Origin: Octopus vulgaris
Taxonomy: Eukaryota
Length of the DNA: 64,000 nt
Assembly: GCA_951406725.2 (NCBI GenBank)
Contig: OX597814.1
Span: 158,348,001-158,412,000 of the forward strand
Reading direction: 5' to 3'
The notes beneath the pieces are model-generated. The model was given only the letters and a program-made list of their open reading frames with translations, was not told the DNA's origin and searched no databases. The position numbers and the translations under genes are program-made. Shown here one piece after another: positions 134 to 55,892 of the stretch (position 1 is the stretch's first letter; each line of letters opens with the position of its first letter).

Positions 134-1011
134 AAACCCATCAATGGTTAAAGGCCTCTGGCTTAAAATCTGAAACAGAAGGGTCTATCATAGTAGCTCG
201 AGATCAATGCCTACATATAAGGAACTACCAGGCCAACATATTAAAGAACGGCAGTAGCCCAACATGTCGTGTATGTCAACAACAAAATCAAACCATTGAT
301 CATGTTGTCTCCAAGTGCAGTCTTCTTGCGCCTACAGAGTATCTCAACAGGCACAATATAATCACAGGGTAATTTGCAAAAGCCTAGACTTGCTTCATGA
401 TAAAAACTGGTGGGAACATAAACCACCCCCAGTGCTTCAAAATGATTACATCTCACTCGTCTGGAACTTCACCATTCAAACTGATAGAAAGATAGACGCG
501 AATAGGCCAAACATCATATTGAAGACTTCAGATAATAATCATGCCTCCTCATTGATATGACTGTCCCAATCGATATAAACTTATCTGTCAAGACCTACCA
601 AAAACTGAGCAAATATAAAGATCTTGAAATAGAAATCAGCAAAATGTGGAACCTGAAGATTAAAACAATACCTGTTGTCAAAGGTGCCCTTGAGAATGAT
701 AGCAAAAGGGGCTTATTGCTACCTAGCTCAGATACCAGGAAACCCCAAAATGGTAGAAATTCAAAAGATAGTGCTCATGGGAACTGCCCATATCCTACGC
801 AAAATATTCTCTATGTAATCTCAAGTTTTAAAACAAACATAATTTTCTTACGGTTTCTTAAACATTCTCTAGAACAACTCTATGTACAAAACCAAATATA
901 TGCCACCCTAGCCATAACACCAACATGAAATTCCAACTTGTTGTCTCTTGAGGTCTCTGGGTGAGACTTAGAGCCAACTCGTACAAATGTAAAGCAAAAA
1001 TCAAACATAAA

Positions 1012-1056: not shown

Positions 1057-2406
1057 GAAAAATAAGGAAACTGTTGACAATGCATAGAATGCACCACCCT
1101 AGGGCAGATACAGAACGACTCTATCTGCCAAGAAAAGAGGGAGGCCGTGGTCTTTTGCAACTGGCAATAACAATGAAGATTGCTACAATTGGCCTAGACA
1201 CCTACCTGAAAAACTCTGAGGACTGGATGTTAAAACTTGTCTCAAAACATGAAAACAAGAAAGCATCATACTCAGTCACAAAACAGGCAAAGGAATATCT
1301 AAGTGAATTCCGAATACAACCAATTTCGGAATTAGAGATAGACATACAAGAAACAAGCACAGAAAAAGCTAGGCGCATGAAAACCCGTGCCAAAACTGCG
1401 GCCTTAGATATTCTGAATAATAAATGGCAAGAAAAACCTCTCTATGGCAAATACCCAAAGAGAGCGAATAATGCAGATATCGACAAAGCCCTGACCCATC
1501 AATGGCTAATGGCCTCTGGCTTAAAATCTGAAACAGAGGGGTTTATCATAGCAGCTCAAGATCAATGCCTACCAACAAGAAACTACCAGGCCAACATATT
1601 AAAGATCAGAAGCAGTCCAACGTGTCGTGTATGCAAGCAACAAAATGAAACCATTGACCATGTTGTCTCCAAGTGCAGTCTTCTAGCGCCTACAGAGTAT
1701 CTCAACAGGCACGATAGAGCTGCACAATATATTCACTGGGTAATCTGTAAAAACCTGGATTTGCCCCATGAAAAAAACTGGTGGGAACACAAACCACCCC
1801 CAGTGCTTGAAAATGACCACATCTCACTCCTCTGGAACTTCACCATTCAAACTGACAGGAAGATAGATGCAAATAGGCCAGACATCATATTGAAAGACTT
1901 CAAACAAAGAACATGCCTCCTCATTGATATGACTGTCCCAATCGATATAAACGTATCTGTCAGGACCTACCAAAAACTGAGCAAATATAAAGATCTTGAA
2001 ATAGAAATCAGCAAAATGTGGAAGCTGAAGACTAAAACAATACCTGTTGTCATAGGTGCCCTGGGAATGATAGCAAAAGGGGCTGATAGCTACCTAACTC
2101 AGATACCAGGAAACCCAAAAATGGCAGAAGTTCAAAAGATAGTGCTCATGGGAACTGCTCATATCCTACGCAAAATACTCTCTATGTAACCTCAAGGTTT
2201 AAAACAACCATAATTTTCGGTTCAAAAAAAAAAAAAAAAAAAAAACTTTTTTTTTTAGACATTCATTAGTACAACATCCCCACCCCCCAAATATATGGCA
2301 CACTAGGCATAACAACAACATGAACTTCCAACCCTGTTGTCTCTTGAGGTCTCTGGGTGAGACTTGGAGCCAACTTGTACAAATATAAAGCAAAAGTCAA
2401 ACATAG

Positions 2407-3190: not shown

Positions 3191-3266
3191 CATTATTATT
3201 ATTATTATTATTATTATAATTATTATTATTATCATCATCATTATTATTGTTGTTGTTGTTTTATTA
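2984..3266. repeat. (AAT)n switching to (ATT)n, an imperfect inverted microsatellite
   Basis: Directly visible; strand switch near 3093. Confidence 0.95.
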
Positions 3267-5289: not shown

Positions 5290-5630
5290 AATGGTTTCTA
5301 ATTATCATATTGTTGTAATACAGTATCATTGTTCATCTTTTTTAATGTGGCATACGCAGAATTTGAAGTTATAATCTCTTTTAATGCTGGAGGTTGGAAT
5401 GCTATCTTCCAGGATCTTCCGTGTATAAATAAAATCACACCTATGTCATTCAAAGTGTGGAGACGTAGGGCCTTGAGACGTTCCCAGTGGCTAAGGGCTT
5501 TAACTGAAGTTGTACGAGTGAACGTTCTCTGTGATATTTCGATATCTTCAATGAGAAGAGATGATTTTGGGGACAATGTTGTGAATAGTAATCTAGTCAA
5601 CTAAAAACTAATGTTTTCCATAGCGTCAGT
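5290..5630 (-). pseudogene. Old LINE RT C-terminal remnant
   Basis: IEDIEISQRTFTR..LSHWERLKALRLHTL resembles LEAIQRSYTK..MSYRERLKRLKLYSL in ORF 51691..52497. Confidence 0.65.
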
Positions 5631-6420: not shown

Positions 6421-6616
6421 AAACTCGTTAAAATGAATGTTCCATAATTCACCTTTTGTAGAGAGGAAAACAGACAGATGGAGGAAAATTCTTCTTATAT
6501 ATAGAAGATCTGAAAGTGACCGTGCTTTACCAGTAAGCTACCAAGTGTAAACCATTCGTTTTATTATCCATTATATTTTATTTGCACCGTTGCTGACGTC
6601 CTGTATCCATATGTGC

Positions 6617-6667
<51 letters not shown>

Positions 6668-6905
6668 TAAGGGTAGAAATTGATATTTATCAATTAAGAC
6701 CAGTGGTCTAGCATATTAAAAAAGAATCCGAAGATTAAAATATTTATATATACCAATTAAGGACTGAACACGAAAAGTGGACAGTCAACATGCTAGATAT
6801 AGACATCAAATCGTCATTCACCACAAAAGATTATGTTCTCAGATCAAACTCAACACAAAGCCATAGCAATAAACAAGTGAAAAATATACGAAATAAAATA
6901 ATTAC

Positions 6906-6970
6906 CCATGTACTAACTTAGTTTCAGCTGTTATTTTCCGCAAGGAAAACTGCAGCCATCATCAGCATGG
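6906..6970 (-). ncRNA. Type I hammerhead ribozyme, family A
   Basis: Reverse complement of 7537-7601. Confidence 0.85.
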
Positions 6971-7536
6971 TCCGTTATAAATGTAATTTGCTGGACTAGA
7001 TGCAAACACGATACCGAAATATCGCGTGCATGGAGTTCAGCCTATTACATTTGAATATATCTTTCAAATGCCTTTACTTTGGCGCGTTGAAACCCGAGAA
7101 AACTAGCCTGCAGCTAGTAATTAGCAGCAGTTAATTTATCGGTTAGAGAACATATTTATTTATATAAAATTAATTAAGGGTAGAAATTGATATTTATCAA
7201 TTAAGACCAGTGGTCTAGCATATTAAAAAAGAATCCGAAGATTAAAATATTTATATATACCAATTAAGGACTGAACACGAAAAGTGGACAGTCAACATGC
7301 TAGATATAGACGTCAAATCGTCATTCACCACAAAAGATTATGTTCTCAGATCAAACTCAACACAAAACCATAGCAATAAACAAGTGAAAAATATACGAAA
7401 TAAAATAACTCGGGTTTCAACGCGCCAAAGTAAAGGCATTTGAAAGATATATTCAAATGTAATAGGCTGAACTCCATGCACGCGATATTTCGGTATCGTG
7501 TTTGCATCTAGTCCAGCAAATTACATTTATAACGGA

Positions 7537-7601
7537 CCATGCTGATGATGGCTGCAGTTTTCCTTGCGGAAAATAACAGCTGAAACTAAGTTAGTACATG
7601 G
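7537..7601 (+). ncRNA. Type I hammerhead ribozyme, family A
   Basis: CCAUG-CUGAUGA-u-GGCUG...CAGCU-GAAA-CUAAGUUAG-UA^-CAUGG. Stem I is CCAUG/CAUGG, stem III is ACUA/UAGU, with GUA cleavage after 7596. Confidence 0.85.
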
Positions 7602-8043
7602 GTAATTATTTTATTTCGTATATTTTTCACTTGTTTATTGCTATGGTTTTGTGTTGAGTTTGATCTGAGAACATAATCTTTTGTGGTGAATGACGATTTG
7701 ACGTCTATATCTAGCATGTTGACTGTCCACTTTTCGTGTTCAGTCCTTAATTGGTATATATAAATATTTTAATCTTCGGATTCTTTTTTAATATGCTAGA
7801 CCACTGGTCTTAATTGATAAATATCAATTTCTACCCTTAATTAATTTTATATAAATAAATATGTTCTCTAACCGATAAATTAACTGCTGCTAATTACTAG
7901 CTGCAGGTTAGTTTTCTCGGGTTTCAACGCGCCAAAGTAAAGGCATTTGAAAGATATATTCAAATGTAATAGGCTGAACTCCATGCACGCGATATTTCGG
8001 TATCGTGTTTGCATCTAGTCCAGCAAATTACATTTATAACGGA

Positions 8044-8108
8044 CCATGCTGATGATGGCTGCAGTTTTCCTTGCGGAAAATAACAGCTGAAACTAAGTTA
8101 GTACATGG
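8044..8108 (+). ncRNA. Type I hammerhead ribozyme, family A
   Basis: Same as 7537-7601, offset +507. Confidence 0.85.
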
Positions 8109-8550
8109 GTAATTATTTTATTTCGTATATTTTTCACTTGTTTATTGCTATAGTTTTGTGTTGAGTTTGATCTGAGAACATAATCTTTTGTGGTGAATGA
8201 CGATTTGACGTCTATATCTAGCATGTTGACTGTCCACTTTTCGTGTTCAGTCCTTAATTGGTATATATAAATATTTTAATCTTCGGATTCTTTTTTAATA
8301 TGCTAGACCACTGGTCTTAATTGATAAATATCAATTTCTACCCTTAATTAATTTTATATAAATAAATATGTTCTCTAACCGATAAATTAACTGCTGCTAA
8401 TTACTAGCTGCAGGCTAGTTTTCTCGGGTTTCAACGCGCCAAAGTAAAGGCATTTGAAAGATATATTCAAATGTAATAGGCTGAACTCCATGCACGCGAT
8501 ATTTCGGTATCGTGTTTGCATCTAGTCCAGCAAATTACATTTATAACGGA

Positions 8551-8615
8551 CCATGCTGATGATGGCTGCAGTTTTCCTTGCGGAAAATAACAGCTGAAAC
8601 TAAGTTAGTACATGG
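8551..8615 (+). ncRNA. Type I hammerhead ribozyme, family A
   Basis: Same as 7537-7601, offset +1014. Confidence 0.85.
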
Positions 8616-9057
8616 GTAATTATTTTATTTCGTATATTTTTCACTTGTTTATTGCTATGGTTTTGTGTTGAGTTTGATCTGAGAACATAATCTTTTGTGG
8701 TGAATGACGATTTGACGTCTATATCTAGCATGTTGACTGTCCACTTTTCGTGTTCAGTCCTTAATTGGTATATATAAATATTTTAATCTTCGGATTCTTT
8801 TTTAATATGCTAGACCACTGGTCTTAATTGATAAATATCAATTTCTACCCTTAATTAATTTTATATAAATAAATATGTTCTCTAACCGATAAATTAACTG
8901 CTGCTAATTACTAGCTGCAGGCTAGTTTTCTCGGGTTTCAACGCGCCAAAGTAAAGGCATTTGAAAGATATATTCAAATGTAATAGGCTGAACTCCATGC
9001 ACGCGATATTTCGGTATCGTGTTTGCATCTAGTCCAGCAAATTACATTTATAACGGA

Positions 9058-9122
9058 CCATGCTGATGATAGCTGCAGTTTTCCTTGCGGAAAATAACAG
9101 CTGAAACTAAGTTAGTACATGG
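9058..9122 (+). ncRNA. Type I hammerhead ribozyme, family A
   Basis: As above; a G>A change at 9071 turns the first G.U pair of stem II into A-U. Confidence 0.85.
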
Positions 9123-9273
9123 GTAATTATTTTATTTCGTATATTTTTCACTTGTTTATTGCTATGGTTTTGTGTTGAGTTTGATCTGAGAACATAATCT
9201 TTTGTGGTGAATGACGATTTGACGTCTATATCTAGTATGTTGACTGTCCACTTTTCGTGTTCAGTCCTTAATT

Positions 9274-9309
<36 letters not shown>

Positions 9310-9312
<3 letters not shown>

Positions 9313-9683
9313 TTGTTTTCCGTGAAAGTTTGGCGCGCTGTTAGTTGGGGCATTTGAATTATAACGTCGGATGTAATCAATTGAACCACACGCGTATTTA
9401 TCGTTATGGTAAAATCTGGCGTGTGATTGAGTGGATTTCATCCAGATAGTTTTGGCTGAAGAGCTACAAGTGGATTTTATTGTAAGTAAAATTACATTTA
9501 ATTCATTAATAGCGAAACAATTGTCCCAAAATAATCTGTATTTGTTATTTTTTATTTGCCCTGTCCGTGTGAGCTAACAATCGTACTGACTTTCATGGGA
9601 AACATGTATTTTTGTGGTTGAAACCTTTTGGATTAACTGGTGCTAGAGTGAGCCATATAGTGACCACTCTCTTATATTTATTT

Positions 9684-9715: not shown

Positions 9716-9716
9716 G

Positions 9717-10247
9717 TTATCAGTAATAATATAGGGTGAAATTAATTAATTTGGAATAATCATTAATTTCACCAAATTTCATCCCAGTAAATGACCACAA
9801 CATCTTGTCTTAGCTGCACGCTGGTGGGAAGGGGTTGGTGACACAAACTTTCATTCACACTTTGAATTTGGTGATACTGGTAACGGCTTTAGCTCGCTCT
9901 GATACTGAGTTGAGATGATGCCTTCTAGTACCTCGAAATTTAATATACAATTATTCATAATTGTAGTGTCCTACGCTGATGAGAAAATAAGTTGGGTAAG
10001 ACATAATTATCTAATTCTTATGCTTTCCTAAAACTTAATTTCGAAACGTACGTCCGTAGGTGACTTAAAATTGTATGATAGATTGCCGTCATTTCTTTCT
10101 CTCTTGCCTGTCTGTGTTTGCCTTTCAAGTGCTGTGGTTTTACTGAGATCTCCCTTTTAGTAGAAAGAATAGCTATAACTCTTTGACTGCTATTTCTAAA
10201 TTCGGTGTGTGGTGAGGCAAATCGTTGCTAAACCCTTAATTACTTAG

Positions 10248-20550: not shown

Positions 20551-20885
20551 ATACATTATTTACATTTCATGGATATTTGTCCTCATCTTGTTTGTTGTTA
20601 TTCAGGTCGCTGCCTAGAATCGAACTCGGAATCTTTGGGGTTAGTAGCCCGCGCTCTTAACCACTACGACATATGCCCACGGGTATAATAAGAAGAATAA
20701 TAACATCGAAAAATACCTTAGGAATGAGAACCCAGGTTCGAAATTTCCCCAAGAAACCTGATGAAGGCTGGAGGGTAAATCAGCCGAAACAACAAACAAG
20801 ATGAAGACAAATATCCGTCAAATGCATATAATGTAAATATTGTAAATAATGTACATAATCCTTCATCTCTTAAATATAGAACTGA
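20551..20885. mobile_element. tRNA-headed HHR-bearing SINE-like element (family E) in an inverted composite: head plus tail on minus (20551-20683), HHR body plus tail on plus (20684-20885)
   Basis: The minus head reads GGGCATATGTCGTAGTGGTTAAGAGCG..GAGTTCGATTCT. The plus strand has CTGATGA-AGGCTG..CAGCC-GAAAC at 20758-20790. Segment 20551-20600 is an inverted copy of 20788-20836. Confidence 0.75.
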
Positions 20886-25240: not shown

Positions 25241-25726
25241 ATAATCCGCGAGAGTGTGTATGTGTGCATGTTTGTGCGTCTGTGCGTGTGTGTATGTGTG
25301 TGTGTGCGTGCGTGCGTGCGTGTGTGTGTGTGTGTGTGTAATCACTATTTGCATCGTGGGCAACATAATCTTGGACAAATATCTGCATCTTTAATCGTAA
25401 TATGTCTAGGCAGGTTCAGAAACAAAATATGGTAGTCGCTGTAGTGTACGCCATGGAAAAATAACTTATCTCTTTTACTATGACAGTGTGTTTAACGCAC
25501 TCGGCTCATTGGCTCATAGGGGTCTGGGACACCGATGTTTCGACATGTTGTGCTACGTCACCCAATAGTACTCGGGCTTTTGAGCCTAAATCAGGCCGTT
25601 AACTTCGTTAATACTTTCAGCGAAAAAATTGTTTGCTCATCGATGCTTACATCTGCCAACTGATGAAAATGCATTATTTGCACCGTGTCTGAACCCGCAC
25701 AGATGTATTAAAATGCAAATATTCAT

Positions 25727-25757
<31 letters not shown>

Positions 25758-25759
25758 TT

Positions 25760-26240
25760 AATCAATATAGGGTGGCAAAAAAAATTTTGTAGAATTCTTT
25801 TGCCACCAGCGGCCTAGTAGGAAAAAATTAAATAGTCATAAACCATTTTTACGTTCAACATCACAATCAAGGAACGGCCATAATAGGCCATTCACCCACT
25901 AGAAATAACAGCCAAAACCTTTAACCGCAAAATAACATTAATACCGTAAACCAGGAGAAAATTGAAAAACTTTTACCCTGTAATTTCTTAGACGATGCAC
26001 CGTTTCATCTACCGTTTAATGGTAAACTAACCTGATTAAATTAAATCAAGCCAATCCACCATAGGCCCTTAGACTCATCAGTAAGAAATAGCCAAATCGG
26101 AACAGATATTTTTCACGAGGCATTCCTCTTGCTGCCTCGGCAATATCTGACCTAAAATTTTCAAATCGTCGCACTCGCGCCAAATTTATCGGCAGCAAAT
26201 GAACCACCGATTCCGTTACGGAACTAACGGAATTGAACAC
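25760..26240 (-). mobile_element. (TA)n-anchored HHR mini-element, family D, copy 1
   Basis: Homologous to 27740-28195, contains an HHR, and its 3' end abuts (TA)n. Confidence 0.8.
25983..26089 (-). ncRNA. Type I hammerhead ribozyme, family D
   Basis: AUUUCUUA-CUGAUGA-GUCUA...UAGAU-GAAA-CGGUGCAUCG-UC^-UAAGAAAU, with an 8-bp stem I and a long stem II extension. Confidence 0.88.
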
Positions 26241-27518: not shown

Positions 27519-27739
27519 TCTATAAAACATAAAGCTATAAACCTGTAGCGATGGATGGATGTAGAGTGACCACTCATCACAAAGCTATCAAATTTCAACT
27601 TCCTACGGCCGAAGCTAGAAAGTGATTTATGACGCTTACTCCCAAAACTATACCCTAAAATCTATTATCAGATTTTTATCTCTATATCACAGAACTATTG
27701 TTTTACTGTTATATATTGTTATATATTTACATTTTAGTC

Positions 27740-28193
27740 TCATGACTATTTTTCTTTTCCACTGGGCCGCTGGTAGTGATAAATTTCTATCGAATTTTTT
27801 ACTACCCTAAATTGATTAATTGATTATCTTCTGACTAATTCTGAGATTGAATCGGCAGTTTATATTTGCTGCTGATAAGATTGGCGCGATTACGCTGGTC
27901 TTCGAAAATTTTAAGACAGATATCCCAGAGGCTTCGATGCAGTAGCCTCGTGTATATTTGCCTCTACCAAAGGTTTCTTTACTGATGAGGCGTGACCTAT
28001 GGTAGATTAGCTTAATTTAATTTAATTAAGCTGGTCTATCATTAAAAACGCAGAAACGATGCATCGTCTAAAAGATGAATTAGGGTAAACGTTTTTAATT
28101 TTTCACCTATTTCCGAATTATATTACTTTGCGGTTGGAGTTATGGCTGCTCTGTCTAGTGGATGAATGGCCTGTTAAGGCCATTCCTAAATTG

Positions 28194-28195
<2 letters not shown>
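27740..28195 (+). mobile_element. (TA)n-anchored HHR mini-element, family D, copy 2 (diverged and circularly permuted)
   Basis: Blocks are homologous to the reverse complement of 25760-26240, in rotated order. Confidence 0.75.
27975..28075 (+). ncRNA. Type I hammerhead ribozyme, family D
   Basis: UCUUUA-CUGAUGA-gGCGU...ACGCa-GAAA-CGAUGCAUCG-UC^-UAAAAGA, with GUC cleavage after 28068. Confidence 0.82.
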
Positions 28196-29604: not shown

Positions 29605-29679
<75 letters not shown>

Positions 29680-29680
<1 letters not shown>

Positions 29681-29960
29681 GAGGGAGATAAATTAATATT
29701 AATTTAAAACCAGTAGTCTAGCATACAAAAATCTGAAAAATCAGAGAAAATTCTAATACATGTGTATATTGACAGGGCAAACCGCTAGGTAGTCGGCCGC
29801 ATGCTAGAAATAGATCATCAACGATCAAACTACAAAGAATGTTCTCTAGAGGAAAATTCAGCGAACACCAGAAACAAATTAGGCGGGCAAGACAGATGAA
29901 AATTTATATAAAAAACAGAATTAATCGCATACCTCGGTTTCAACTATTAACAAAAGAAAT
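29680..29960 (-). mobile_element. Diverged, 5'-truncated relative of the 507-bp HHR unit
   Basis: Shares ACCAGT.GTCTAGCATA and CATGCTAGA.ATAGA with 6699-6803. Retains only the HHR 3' half GAAACCGAGGUA and abuts (TA)n. Confidence 0.65.
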
Positions 29961-31399
29961 ACTTACATAATTCAAATGTCCGTAGTTTCGTCAGTACGAT
30001 CGTATTTTCAGGAATAGTGTATCTAACTTTTATGGCATCATAATTTTCATACCCTGTGTAATTAGAAAGCGTCTCACTGTGCCTTTTGCTTCCAGGTACT
30101 AAAATCAGAAACGACGTTGATGGCAATTTTGTCGTTATAGCAAATCCACTTGTATCTATTTTGTGTTTTATAGTATTTTTATAGTTTTTTTTCTATTTTA
30201 TTTTGATATAATTTTATATAATATTATTTCCTTGCATGAAGAATAATTTGTTTCATTCAAACTCTGTGACATTTTTCAGATATTCTCAATAAATCTTATC
30301 TTATTCATGCTAAACGTAATTAATCCTCACTTAAAAGTGGATGCTGTATTCGAACACAGAATACTGCGTTATTTACCATGCAATAACCTTTCATATAGAC
30401 TTGTGGTGCATATAAGCACTCATATTTATATCTCTAGTGGGAGATGATCACCCGCTATCACCGTCGAGTCTGTTAATTCAAGCTATCTCCACCCTTGTTG
30501 GCCTTGTCAATGATAGTCGTCCTTAGCTAGAGATAGCAGCAAATTTCCGTTTGCGATATACATAGTATTTCAGTGTCTATTCAGGCAGTGATGTCAAAAG
30601 CATCCACTTATCTTATATGGAGATAAATACTATCTTTCGTTTTTAATGCTGATTCTATTAGTATTTAATTATTTTTTATAAGCCCCACTGGCTATTTACA
30701 ACACTAATGCCTAAATAGACACTGAGATTCTATGTATATCACTGATGGGGGAATCACTACTATCTCTAGCCACGGGTATCTGCTATTGGTAAAGCCAAGG
30801 AACAGAAGTTATAGGAGCTGGTAGTCCCGGTGGCGATAGTGGACGATTATCTCCTGCCAGCGATATAAATACGACTGTTTGTATCCACTGCAAGTCCTTA
30901 TGAAAGGTTCTCTCTTAGTAATTAACACAGTATTCTGTGTTCTAAAATAACACACACTTTTAAGTAGGAATAAATATTACCTTAACCACGTTGTTTGAGA
31001 TGTAATTCTCAATCTTCTATAGTTGAGAAGTCTTTTCTTTTATATACAATTTAAGGGTTCTACATCGATTATTTTGAATATATATTTTTTTGTTATTCGT
31101 TTTGCATAACAATACACTGATTTCTGACTGAGGATCAAATTGAAAGATGCTATTAGTCTTTGTTTTGTTTTCCTCTCTCTTTCGCAACTGCATGTTACAT
31201 TCTTTTTTTTTCTTTACCTTATTTTCTCTACATTTTATTCCTAAATTTTAGTAGCAGTATTTTAGCACGTTATTTATGCGCGATACATCTAGACAGTATC
31301 TTCAGTTAAGTTGTCAACTTTAATTATTTTTTCATTCTGTTTTTGAGAAACACTTTTTTAAATGAATTCTCCTGTGAAGATTTCTTCTGTCAAATATAT

Positions 31400-48718: not shown

Positions 48719-48788
<70 letters not shown>

Positions 48789-48830
48789 GTCTTTCTGTCT
48801 GTCTGTCTATCTATCTATACATTTATCTAT
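48615..48830. repeat. (TATC)n microsatellite
   Basis: Directly visible. Confidence 0.97.
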
Positions 48831-48898
48831 CTTTTTACATACATACGTACACACATATGATGGGTTGATATGCAATATATTTAAATATAATTAACGCG

Positions 48899-49320
48899 TA
48901 TATATAATATATTAATATATAAAACAAATGTAGATCTCAATACAAGAAACAAAAGACAAATCATTAAAACAAGAAATATAATATATAAAGAATGTGCTGG
49001 ATCAATTTAATGTCCCATCCTTAAGAAATCTTCGGTGGACAGAAATTCATAATTGAAGATGATAGGCGAAATTATTCACTTCTAGCTTGATAAAGATTTG
49101 ACATGACTTCCCTATACGTTTTGAAAGTATACATTTATATGTCATTGTCTTTAAAGAAAAAAAGCTGCCAAGAAACATGTAGTGTCGTACATTCTCAGAA
49201 TGCATTGTGAATAAATGAACGAATAACCATAAATTTGAATTTCAATAATTGCATATGTATAGTTAGAAAATGTTTATCTTATATTAAACTTATTAATACT
49301 TCTTGATAGTTATATATATA
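48899..49320 (+). repeat. Left arm of a ~420-bp near-perfect inverted repeat
   Basis: Reverse complement of 54413-54832, with about 3 differences seen. Confidence 0.95.
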
Positions 49321-49379
49321 TATATGTAAAATAATATATACGGACCGACAGAAAAGAAAGGAGTCATGGAGGAGTTGCT

Positions 49380-50189
49380 ATGTACATCCGTGAGGACCTC
49401 ACACCCCAGGTTTTTCTGTCATACTCAAACTCGGTGTGTGACACACTAATTGTACATGTAAGGCAACTTGGTGTAGTTGTGTGTGCTACATATCGCCCTC
49501 CAGATGCCCCAAGCCATATGGGCAAGTTTGAAGACTGCCTTATAAAAATAGAAGAAGTTCTAGTCACACTAGAACAGCACATGAGTGTACCTCTCATGGG
49601 AGACTTCAACCTACCCAATGTCAGATGGCCCGAGGGCCCTTCTCTCCCAGGAATGACACGATGTGAACGGGGACAGGCGAGGTCCCTCCTGAACCTCATC
49701 AACACCCTGTACATGGAGCAAGTAATACTCCAACCAACCAGGGCAGGTAACACACTGGATCTCTGCTTCACAAATAATATGGATCTCATCCATAATGTGA
49801 AAGTGACACCGACACTACTCTCGGATCACAACATGGTAGAGCTGACCATGTACGGGCCAAAGGAAAGCATGGACATGCAGCCTACAAGAAACTCTCAGAA
49901 TCTTTCCAGCTTGAACTTCAATAAGGCAAACTGGAAACAAATTGAGAAAGAGATCCTCAAACAAAACTGGCCTGAATGTCTCTCCTCGCCGGACATCGAC
50001 ATGAAACTTCAACAATTCATGTCTGTAATGCAAGCCATATACTACAAATGTTTCCCAGAGAGAAAGGCCACTATACACAAGAACAAAATCCCCAGAGAGA
50101 GGAAAATTCTAATGAGACGGCGCACAAAAATCTCAAATCGCCTAAACAAACAAATTGAAAGCAGTGAAAATGAAACTGTTGGAAATTGA
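49380..50189 (+). pseudogene. LINE ORF2 AP-endonuclease domain (partial)
   Basis: YRPP, GDFN, PTR, LDL and SDH motifs; frameshift near 50165. Confidence 0.9.
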
Positions 50190-52497
50190 AAACTGTCTGC
50201 AACTCTCCCATGAAAAGGAAAGAACAGACAAAGAAGCCTGGGCTATAGACAACATAAAATCTAACCCCAGAGCTTTCTACAGGTATGCCAAAGAAACAGC
50301 TACGGTGCACTGTAGGATAGGGCCACTCCTTGAAAGGGATGGCACACTCACAGGAAATCCAATGAGGGTAAATGAAATACTAAATGAGCAATTCAAGAGT
50401 GTTTTCACCCCACCCCTTGGGCATTTCCAGATCAGCAATCCAACTGACTTCTTCACCACTGCAGATATGGGGTCAGAGGCGGCGATGATTGATTACATCA
50501 ATATAAAGGAAGACGATGTAATAAAGGCTATAGATGAGATGGAAACAAACTCAGCTACTGGCCCCGATGGATTCCCAGCAATCCTTCTAAAAGTATGTAA
50601 GAGGGTCCTAGCAAGGCCACTGCGGTCTCTCTTTCAGAGCTTCCTTGCAACTGGCAAACTTCCAAGAAAACTGAAGGAAGGTAAAATATGCCCTATTCAT
50701 AAAGGAGGTAGCAGAGCGGAGGCCAAGAACTACAGACCTATCTCTCTAACCTCACACATCAGCAAGGTCATGGAACTAATAGTCAGAAGGAAACTAATCA
50801 CCTTCCTTGAAGAAAATGACTTGCTGCCTGACACCCAACATGGTTTCCGACCAGGAAGAAGCTGCTTAACTCAGCTCCTACAACACTATGACTGGGTGCT
50901 GAAACAACTGCTCAACCACTCAAATGTGGAAGTCATATATCTCGACTTTGCAAAGGCCTTTGATAAAGTCGATCATGATAAAGTCGATATGTCACAAACT
51001 GCGTGATCTTGGCATAGTTGGAAAATTGGGAGAATGGCTTCATGACTTTCTGAAGAATAGAAGTCAGGTGGTAGCAGCCAATGGGGCCACTTCCATTAAC
51101 ACGCAAATAGTGAGCGGTGTTCCGCAGGGCACTGTTTTGGGACCACTACTGTTCATAATGGCCCTCTCAGACATGCCCTCAGCCACGCAGAGAGCCACGA
51201 TCACAAGTTATGCAGATGATACAAAAGTTTCACAGGCAATACGATGGTTCCGGGTTCAGTCCCACTGCGAGGCATCTTGAGCAAGTGTCTTCTGCTATAG
51301 CCCCGGGCCGACCAATGCCTTGTGAGTGGATTTGGTAGACGGAAACTGAAAGAAGCCTGTCGTATATATGTATATATATATATGTGTGTGTTTGTGTGTC
51401 TGTGTTTGTCCCCCTAGCATCGCTTGACAACCGATGCTGGTGTGTTTACGTCCCCGTCACTTAGCGGTTCGGCAAAAAAGAGACCGATAGAATAAGTACT
51501 GGGCTTACAAAGAATAAGTCCCGGGGTCGAGTTGCTCGATTAAAGGCGGTGCTCCAGCATGGCCGCAGTCAAATGACTGAAACAAGTAAAAGAGAAAGAG
51601 AAAGAGAAAGAGAGAATACAGAACCCTGAAGACACTAAGCACCTGCAATGTGAGCTGGACGAAATATACAAGTGGGCTGAAAAGAATAGCATGCAGTTCA
51701 ATGCTGAAAAGTTTCAAGCTTTATACTATCAGCATGCAAAACTGAATGCAATACCCAATGAATACACTGGACCCGGAGGGATTGCAATCCCAGAGGCACA
51801 ATCAGTGCGTGACCTGGGTATTCACATGAGTGATGACGCGACCTTTCATGTACATGTTGCTAAACTGGCAAGGAAATGTAGACGGCTGGCTGGATGGATT
51901 CTTAGAACCTTTAGAACAAGAGAACAAGAAACCATGATGGTCCTCGGGAAGACACTTGTCCTAAGCCACTTTGACTATTGCTCTCAGCTATGGTCACCAT
52001 CCAGTGTCAAGTTGATCACAGAACTTGAGGCGATCCAACGAAGCTACACGAAGAAGATAGCCTCTGTGCAGCATATGAGCTACCGGGAAAGACTCAAGAG
52101 ATTAAAGCTCTATTCCCTGGAGCGCAGGCGAGAAAGATATGCCATAATATATATCTGGAAGATCCTGGAAGGACTTGTCCCAAACTTTGGCATCGTGAGT
52201 CACACAAATGCCAGAACCGGGGGCCACTGCGTAGTACCAAGGACTCCAAATTTGCCATCAAGATGTAGGACAAGATACTGTGATAGCCTGGGCTTCAGAG
52301 GCCCACAGCTCTTCAATATCCTCCCGAAGAATCTGAGGGACCTGCATGGTGTAGATGCGGATGTCTTTAAAGTAGGACTGGATCTCTTCCTGTCAGGTGT
52401 CCCGGATGGACCAACTTCACGGCAGGAGGTGCAGATGAGGGCAGCTGCATCGAACTCTCTCATGCATCAGATGGCGTTTGCTAAAAAGCATCCGTGA
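50155..52497 (+). pseudogene. LINE ORF2 reverse transcriptase and C-terminus, split over ORFs 50155..51006, 50924..51280 and 51691..52497
   Basis: Canonical RT blocks. A short TGATAAAGTCGAT duplication near 50960-50990 and the SINE insertion break the frame. Confidence 0.92.
51243..51614 (+). mobile_element. 5'-truncated SINE family 1 inserted in the LINE RT
   Basis: AATAC is duplicated at 51238-51242 and 51615-51619; removing the insert restores YADDTKVSQAIQNPEDT. Confidence 0.92.
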
Positions 52498-52590
52498 GGT
52501 AAAATCGTGTAGCAAACCAAATGGCGGTGCCCCAGCATGGCCACAGCTCATTAGCTGAAACTGGAAAAATCAAAATCAAATCAAAATCAA

Positions 52591-54402
<1,812 letters not shown>

Positions 54403-54412
54403 ATATATACAA

Positions 54413-54832
54413 ATATATATAACTATCAAAAAGTATTAATAAGTTTAATATAAGATAAACATTTTCTAACTATACATATGCAATTATTGAAATTCAAATT
54501 TATGGTTATTCGTTCATTTATTCACAATGCATTCTGAGAATGTACGACACTACATGTTTCTTGGCAGCTTTTTTCTTTAAAGACAATGACATATAAATGT
54601 ATACTTTCAAAACGTATAGGGAAGTCATGTCAAATCTTTATCAAGCTAGAAGTGAATAATTTCGCCTATCATCTTCAATTATGAATTTCTGTCCACCGAA
54701 GATTTCTTAAGGATGGGACATTAAATTGATCCAGCACATTCTTTATATATTATATTTCTTGTTTTAATGATTTGTCTTTTGTTTCTTGTATCGAGATCTA
54801 CATTTGTTTTATATATTAATATATTATATATA
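54413..54832 (-). repeat. Right arm of the ~420-bp inverted repeat
   Basis: Reverse complement of 48899-49320. Confidence 0.95.
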
Positions 54833-54847
54833 TTATAATATATATAT

Positions 54848-54916
<69 letters not shown>

Positions 54917-55892
54917 TATAGATAGATAGTTAGATAGATATGTACACATACACACACACACACACACATATATATATATGGCCAAGCACAATGAACTTCA
55001 ATGGGGAGGAGTGTGTGCATGTGTGTCTCTAAATGTGTGTGCGCATGTGCCTCTGGATCTTAATGTTATTTATATGAAAAACCTAATGACTCACTATCAA
55101 TCGTTACATATTAACGATTTAACATTTTTTTTCGATTTTTCAACTAGAAACTCAAACGACATTCAGCCTTTAAAACACGGGGCATGCGGTGGATTATATG
55201 CTTCAATAGGTGCAAAGCAGATGCTTAGTTCAAAATTATAACGCATTTTATATCTTAAATTTTTACCTGTTTTTAGACTAACATTTATGCTGATTATTAT
55301 TTTATCTATTTCAATTTTATTCTTATTTCATTTTCCCTTTTCTAACAACGCAGTAATGCCATAAAGGATGAAAAATACTCCCAGCAAAGAAAGAATACAT
55401 CTAATAACATCACCTTATTTCTTTTTAAAAAACTGTGTTGGCGAACTCGACGTCTGATTTGGTATGCAATTTTGTACAATATTCTCGTCTATCAAATGTC
55501 ATTGGGGATTCTAGCTGAAAAATTTCAGAGTCATCAGCAATTGATAATATCAAAAATGTGGAGACTAGATCATTAATTTACATCCCATTTAAAATTTTAT
55601 CATCCACCTCTCCGATATTAAGCATTATTTTCGGTTTGTTGTTAATACAACACACACGCACGAAAACGTACGCGCGCGCGCATTCACACACACATACATA
55701 CATATATACATTATTATCGGGCTCCTTGGAGATGAAACACACTATATAAATATCAATCTTATGAAATTAGACTTCTCAAAACCAAACAGAAGAACCCTAA
55801 TTCGAAGACTTCAGATCCAATCTATCACTTGGAACTATAAAAATCTGTAAAACGTTCCAGAAGTTTATCACTTGAATATATGTGAACATGTG

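Follow-up and report, generated by a model that had tools for sequence, protein, structure and literature searches.

The window, that is, the whole 64,000-nt stretch analysed, is AT-rich animal DNA crowded with SINEs, LINEs and microsatellites; one of the SINEs may point to an octopus. Our own pattern scan for core boxes and stems led to type I hammerheads, with stems I-III and a UH cleavage site, in the elements designated A (five copies), B, C, D+, D- and E; Rfam gave no hammerhead match for these elements or for four Hydra-clade loci, returning simple-repeat noise only. Family A consists of two arms. The inverted arm (6660..7408, minus strand, 1.5 units) starts 9 nt past a hammerhead cleavage site, at the inversion joint 7408/7409, and the direct arm (7409..9275, plus strand) holds 3.7 copies of a 507-bp ORF-less unit, with 1-2 bases different. 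The hammerhead at 7537..7601 (+), recognised by its core boxes and stems I-III, has a predicted cleavage site after 7596, and further ones are located at 8049, 8556 and 9063 (+) and at 6965 (-). By eye, the start of the A unit looks like the antisense of the E hammerhead (29930-29994). Element B (9313..9683, +) carries a hammerhead at 9456-9517 and a hairpin at 9639-9670, which can be read either as GGU/ACC followed by ACU or as AGAGUG/CACUCU followed by CU, and it ends at (TA)n. Next to it are F, a 59-nt inverted cap (9716..9774, -) with no hammerhead of its own in the window, and the 5'-truncated element C (9775..10247, +; hammerhead 9976-10046). D- (25758..26230, -; hammerhead 26081-26003) and D+ (27620..28194, +, 5' boundary approximate; hammerhead 27982-28056) are 72% identical and show the same relative layout as an inverted pair, but lie 1.4 kb apart. 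Finally, E (29679..30100, -, 5' boundary approximate; hammerhead 29994-29938) is related to A.

With five hammerheads in 507-bp units and no ORF of at least 100 aa, family A is built as a tandem ORF-less retrozyme; tandem units are represented by A and D+, B, C and E being single truncated copies in the window. A-E are non-LTR retrozymes, ORF-less hammerhead elements whose self-cleavage and circular RNA are putative. Published non-LTR retrozymes (PMC7229834; bioRxiv 10.64898/2026.07.22.740005) likewise consist of tandem units that are AT-rich, lack ORFs and contain a single type I hammerhead, and their derivation from PLE pseudo-LTRs has been proposed in the same sources. The unit lengths found here are retrozyme-like (507 bp for A, ~430-450 bp for D). 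Unlike the published elements, as far as the accessible text of those sources describes them, the insertions of the window are arranged head to head within (TA)n, and their hammerheads have a long stem II. The core boxes of the B, C, D-, D+ and E hammerheads are separated by 45-70 nt, compared with ~10-35 nt in Hydra-clade loci. PLE insertions are described as having inverted and direct arms with a tail at one end only (PMC8557442, PMC3846280), and an inverted 5'-truncated arm, a direct arm and a one-sided tail are present both in A (6660-7408/7409-9275) and in F/C. All eight element ends are inserted into (TA)n. Similar short stretches at 6578-6619 and 25674-25732 precede the far-side (TA)n runs of A and D-, and possibly belong to a further TA-targeting family.

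The original prediction described a GGU-stem-ACCCU hairpin near the (TA)n junction at five places, and all five are present as written. In family A it is located at 7806-7835 (+), with further copies at 8313 and 8820 (+) and at 7208 and 6701 (-); in D- at 25807-25771 (-), in D+ at 27772-27806 (+) and in F at 9773-9735 (-); and in E at 29711-29684 (-), where the third pair is broken (GGU vs UCC). A sixth hairpin, overlooked at first, was found in element C at 10211-10234 (+). There are 13 closed GGU..ACCCU hairpins in the window, nine within hammerhead elements and four outside. Such a hairpin stands directly before 4 of 76 (TA)n flanks, compared with 37 of 6000 random positions (~0.6%; binomial P ~0.001), and all four flanks are ends of hammerhead-bearing elements. 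A covariance model built from the six hairpins retrieved from the window, at E<1e-5, those six and their repeat copies only; eight further weak non-mirror matches (E 1-9), which are not significant, include the other ends of A and D. The hairpin thus sits at (TA)n-joined 3' ends of the elements, the distance to (TA)n being 19 nt in F and 13 nt in C, whereas the D+ copy is internal and away from its (TA)n junction.

Alignment of the families from the hammerhead onward revealed that the near end is likewise preceded by a stem and then CU. The near-end stems lack GGU/ACC and are located at 7721-7745 in A, 28164-28185 and 25893-25872 in D, and 29800-29777 in E, so that A, D and E carry two stems each, both followed by CU. 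Specifically, hairpin 1 of family A (7721..7747, +) is a GACUG/CAGUC stem with a pair probability of 0.95-1.0; its copy at 9242-9266 stands before the end at 9275, where the direct arm meets (TA)n 9 nt after the hairpin (the untailed end). Hairpin 2 (7806..7837, +), the one originally predicted, has a copy at 6701-6672 (-) before the end at 6660, where the inverted arm meets (TA)n 12 nt after the hairpin (the tailed end). In unit positions the direct arm stops at 7754, upstream of hairpin 2, and the inverted arm runs ~96 nt further, beyond it. The D elements parallel this layout of a near end and a far end past hairpin 2: D- has hairpin 1 at 25893-25872 and ends at (TA)n 13 nt after hairpin 2 (25807-25771), and D+ shows the order hairpin 2 (27772-27806), hammerhead, hairpin 1 (28164-28185), without an ORF between hairpin 2 and the hammerhead, and ends at (TA)n 9 nt after hairpin 1. 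E (hairpin 1 at 29800-29777) retains a decayed hairpin 2 and ends at (TA)n, while C together with its inverted cap F likely forms another two-stem family. Because the near end falls before and the far end after it, hairpin 2 sits in the PLE tail, an optional stretch between the two end sites, which measures ~95-105 nt in the window families. The predicted motif is therefore real and placed at element ends, but it was drawn too narrowly, since A, D and E carry two stems followed by CU; the claim that it is common to the system is not borne out, the near ends of A and D having stems that lack GGU/ACC.

When the rule is widened to a hairpin of -4 kcal/mol or less, followed by CU, 5-24 nt before the junction (a rule set after these ends had been seen), seven of the eight element ends pass, with an offset of 9-19 nt, and E fails. 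Elsewhere the rule is satisfied by 7 of 68 other (TA)n flanks and by 151 of 1500 random positions (Fisher p=2e-4, computed on a first count of 6/8 ends). An alternative explanation is that TA microhomology by itself sets the ends, the hairpins being inherited structure (e.g., for compaction of a circular RNA) or template-switch quasi-palindromes that no protein reads. Each family A unit has three TATATA tracts, of which two coincide with both ends used, so microhomology alone could choose the ends of A; moreover, the families have little stem sequence in common. However, the third tract (7447) serves as no end at this locus, and the fixed CU together with the 9-19 nt spacing recurs in families that barely align. 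We regard this explanation as rather unlikely, with further evidence on both sides coming from the folding and from the Hydra-clade elements below.

Folding of the window hairpins gave unequal results. The GGU/ACC closure in A has a probability of 0.26 in a 200-nt context, where an AGACC/GGUCU stem competes, versus 0.95 in the 507-nt circular unit, and the upper stem of hairpin 2 reaches 0.99-1.0 in both. Shuffling z-scores are -4.3 for F, -3.3 for D-, -2.4 for D+, -1.6 for A, -0.5 for C and 0.1 for E, the last two hairpins being no better than shuffles. With unpaired probabilities of 0.24-0.98, the tracts at the ends cannot clearly be called single-stranded when the circle is folded. D- and D+ can be aligned directly, so that their covariation is free of alignment choice. 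In their hairpin 2 all 11 pairs are kept despite two double and two one-sided changes; in simulations with five random substitutions in the basal eight pairs, all pairs were kept in 1.3% of cases, and together with two double changes in 0.5%. Hairpin 1 keeps 8/8 pairs, with one G-U/A-U change. The six-hairpin alignment has 86% paired cells and a covariation of 0.308 versus 0.154 in shuffles (0/500 reaching it), a value inflated by hand-picking of the hairpins. Pairing is thus kept despite changes in stem sequence in the D pair; the third pair of E is broken, and the closure of A depends on context. Among the contig variants of family A, 7809 and 7819 fall in loops and 7818 T>C breaks the top pair; no compensatory pair was seen among them, which, like the decayed stem of E, favours microhomology. 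DNA template switching can yield compensatory changes without selection, a further point for that explanation. On the other hand, nine of the 11 hairpins are more stable on the sense strand than on the antisense strand, the remaining two both belonging to A, and G-U pairs favouring the sense strand speak against it.

Family A and F/C proved to be dispersed, high-copy families in other sequencing runs, where their genome-wide extent was judged from contigs aligned to these two stretches. Contigs aligned to A numbered 1970 and 1837 per DNA-type run and those aligned to F/C 424-2069, figures that are not copy numbers. Among the loose ends listed, family A contigs run into TA at 7857 (10 contigs), 7767 and 7862, and the summed contig depth on family A drops after ~7760 and ~7850, in accordance with the two end sites at the locus. 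A unit-length joint in family A contigs is as compatible with tandem DNA as with a circle. No RNA run appeared among those listed for family A, which is uninformative as to its expression. Head-to-head joints between F and C occur at nine places between 9801 and 10192 (three runs, one contig per joint); typical F copies have CUACU before GGU, as in A, D and E, and loose ends of C variants retain GGU/ACC with an altered loop. From these contig sequences F would be the tail of family C. All nine joints break inside hairpin F, and stalling of the RT there was considered and dropped, since breaks further 5' could not show as joints on the stretch aligned.

A 5'-truncated Hydra-clade PLE fragment is located at 52585..54288 (-). 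It starts at (TA)n and encodes a CxCx5C linker and a GIY-YIG endonuclease (a weak match, below cut-off), followed by a 3' UTR of ~750 nt; the RT part is absent, and a decayed hammerhead can be discerned by eye near 52670-52610. Its relatives carry the RWK and DKT motifs, in agreement with the Hydra clade. A LINE (~49335-52560) interrupts the fragment ~25 nt after the hammerhead cleavage site, and the block containing it is enclosed by a flank stretch present twice in inverted orientation (48756-49328 and 54404-54940), each copy running into (TA)n; counterparts at L085:950-1165 and 5335-5510 may represent another TA-targeting element or an insertion-linked duplication. A metagenome scan with the single fragment as query gave no match and a scan of viral sequences yielded one weak, irrelevant locus. 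With an alignment of 18 relatives as query, metagenomes yielded 77 loci (from the best 80 of 581) and genomes another 16, 93 in all. In five genomes labelled as bacteria (G001, G002, G003, G004 and G005; L078-L093), PLE contigs and contigs rich in (TA)n are numerous and probably stem from host-animal DNA that entered the bins.

The Hydra-clade loci have 65 hammerheads after an ORF, of which 44 are followed by 85 nt or more of element. For 38 of these 44 we found, no more than 100 nt away, a hairpin of their own, consisting of GCUC, a variable stem, a 2-nt bulge, GAGC and ACU, which starts 36-61 nt past the hammerhead cleavage site; the pattern occurs in 34 of 8800 shuffles and in 0 of 44 upstream windows, and the six hammerheads without a match include variants and truncations. 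A second copy follows 55-73 nt on in 17 rows (e.g., L061:3169-3192 and 3236-3255). In a model-free count, the first variable pair (pair 5) is Watson-Crick in 91 of 107 distinct hairpins versus 50.5 in shuffles, and only the 2-nt bulge register pairs. The model-based covariation (0.312 versus 0.100) leans towards the structure of the nine-row equal-length seed, to which the remaining rows were aligned. Judged by eye on a protein tree with polytomies, several lineages have switched pair 5 between C-G and U-A, and in 8 of 14 distinct hairpin pairs it also switches from one hairpin of an element to the other. The invariant bases equal those of a tRNA D-stem and the bases directly following it, and D-arm-like sequences were also among the matches of the pattern search.

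Two sets of ends were observed here as well, the (TA)n junctions lying at +28-56 (12 cases) or +92-128 (10 cases). Insertions end 2-11 nt upstream of a hairpin in 18 of 18 listed read-through sibling comparisons, a count that left out comparisons without a hairpin within 40 nt. These read-through sites are poor in TA and yet lie at that short distance from an invariant bulged hairpin, contrary to what ends set by microhomology would predict. In 20 regions chosen by hairpin shape from 126 pattern matches, (TA)n follows within 75 nt downstream of 16 of 23 hairpins. Tail-only inserts, consisting of one Hydra hairpin between two (TA)n tracts with neither hammerhead nor ORF, occur at L129:~290-362 (-) and L137:~1530-1600 (+), both in a Hydra host. 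They would suit a hairpin that acts as DNA, namely as a site for the GIY-YIG endonuclease in the tail of the element or in single-stranded cDNA during resolution of the insertion, and the tail of Drosophila virilis Penelope has been reported as required for endonuclease recognition (as cited in PMC11167929). Nevertheless, the hairpin energies under DNA parameters are weak (-0.5 to -9.4 kcal/mol), and a free upper-stem sequence with kept pairing, in which G-U outnumbers A-C 18 to 5 in the Hydra upper stem, is better explained by RNA; recognition as DNA appears decidedly improbable to us.

A third explanation would see in the hairpin and its AU- or U-rich tract a signal for transcription or processing (3' end formation, pausing or an internal promoter), after which the RNA 3' ends formed there would be used for priming in the manner of normal target-primed reverse transcription. 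A stem with a pyrimidine or AU tract behind it does resemble a terminator, and in 24 of 28 loci the last Hydra hairpin is found 19-47 nt upstream of the start codon, a place expected for regulatory elements. Against this, family A was copied through 3.7 units and hence repeatedly past both hairpins, the Hydra hairpin lies beyond the insertion end, and the anole element initiates internally in vitro (PMC11167929), so that we consider such a signal very improbable.

Taken with the same two-hairpin, two-end layout in Hydra-clade PLEs, where a different hairpin lies 3' of each start, these data lead us to prefer, as somewhat more probable than its opposite, the hypothesis that paired RNA hairpins position a borrowed Penelope-type RT at two starts and thereby set the length of the tail. 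Transcription would give a multimeric or circular RNA, which the hammerhead would trim, and a PLE RT-endonuclease, probably a dimer, would nick a (TA)n target on both strands. Each nick would prime at the AU-rich tract beside one hairpin, aided by a few bases of TA microhomology, and the two cDNAs would be joined head to head, the inverted arm reaching to the far site with the tail and the direct arm to the near site, which would make the tail (~95-105 nt) the spacing between the two start sites. Two-site internal initiation and the dimer are adopted by analogy with the anole Poseidon PAc, for which the RT has been reported to start at two adjacent internal sites in a stem-loop, with the tail between them and a protein predicted to be a dimer (PMC11167929); binding of such a protein to the hairpins of the window families is our extension of that case. 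The likeness to PAc comprises the inverted and direct arms, the extension at one end, two RT starts and a stem-loop at the start region (PMC11167929; PMC3846280; PMC8557442). PAc, however, has its start inside a single stem-loop within the ORF, a tail of 30-40 bp and no homology between RT start and cut DNA, whereas the window families have two hairpins outside any ORF, a longer tail (the spacing in Hydra loci being 55-73 nt) and TA microhomology. The suggestion that the predicted hairpin is a cis-acting RT or endonuclease element draws support from the 9-19 nt offset, the double changes of the D pair and the use of the same end sites elsewhere. We conclude that it is a real feature of known element types and plausibly a cis signal, though not a universal motif: GGU..ACC hairpins were found in none of the 93 autonomous Hydra-clade loci, which bear the other hairpin.

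Like the window families, Hydra-clade PLEs (PMC8557442) target (TA)n, have a type I hammerhead in their 3' region and show two end sites with two hairpins; they differ in the motif itself (GCUC/GAGC with a 2-nt bulge and ACU) and in its position 3' of the start, the geometry being opposite to that in the window families, where the hairpin lies 5' of the start. A model of the Hydra hairpin (R1) had no match in the window elements, which accordingly lack the GCUC/GAGC-ACU form, and the window-hairpin model had none in the 93 Hydra loci. Elements A-F show no sequence similarity to the Hydra 3' UTR of the window or to 143 loci. Homology of the two hairpins found no support, as there were neither cross-matches between the models nor sequence similarity; a GGU..ACC-ACU stem in L085 is not linked to a hammerhead. 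Window-type stems occur at only 9 of 45 Hydra ends, and the GGU..ACCCU-(TA)n pattern was not found in the host-contaminated genome G001. A GRCY-RCU motif in A, B, D and E is like the Hydra 3' arm with a G/C swap; the swapped arm (GACC-ACU type) reaches P ~0.04 in A and likewise in B, while C, D and E show no significance. The published octopus Hydra consensus, inspected by eye in its available form, shows a GGUC/GACC stem and then GCU. The Naiad type, which has an N-terminal endonuclease and no canonical hammerhead, does not fit the canonical type I hammerheads of the window, and the ends of five cephalopod Naiad consensi (the 3' ends for four of them) gave no clear match by eye in the available sequences.

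These comparisons bear on a further reading, which we hold possible while leaning against it: the PLE tail would be written in RNA as two protein-binding hairpins at a fixed distance, each loading one RT of a dimer and fixing its start, the tail being as long as the hairpins are apart, with GCUC/GAGC-bulge-ACU as the lineage-wide Hydra code, and the retrozymes would use a diverged code, possibly with swapped G-C, that tells which PLE they parasitise. SINEs and their partner LINEs have common 3' stem-loops, R2 has a 3' UTR structure, and these recruit the RT in cis or in trans. The present case is similar in that an RNA structure close to where priming takes place would recruit the RT; the difference is that those systems have a single element near the true 3' end of the RNA, compared with a pair, internal initiation and a putative GIY-YIG PLE enzyme here.

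The accessible text on non-LTR retrozymes describes no second conserved hairpin or end signal, the word hairpin occurring 0 times in that of PMC7229834, and the Hydra hairpin is unmentioned in the main text and supplement text of PMC8557442, although four of six published consensi show it by eye and the remaining two have it in a swapped or decayed form. Neither hairpin was found described in the literature searched, including the accessible text of PMC4209133, and subscription papers, Repbase reports, supplements or figures may annotate them; the paired-hairpin layout, above all the conserved Hydra hairpin, appears to be undescribed so far. The choice of template and start site by PLEs and the origin of the one-sided tail and inverted ends are named as open questions (PMC8557442, section 15; PMC11167929), and as PLEs are the closest retroelement relatives of telomerase, start-site choice matters. 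With a small covarying hairpin present in two copies, each at a fixed distance from an end site, the question of the PLE tail becomes testable. Such a hairpin would further allow non-LTR retrozymes to be assigned by rule to their autonomous partner, and could serve as a minimal RNA signal by which cargo is loaded onto a microsatellite-targeting RT. Finally, minimal hammerhead-like cores whose stem II is GGCUG/CAGCC are located at 20758-20789 (+) and 37340-37309 (-), beside trinucleotide repeats; the two are related and likely represent the ends of another PLE family.
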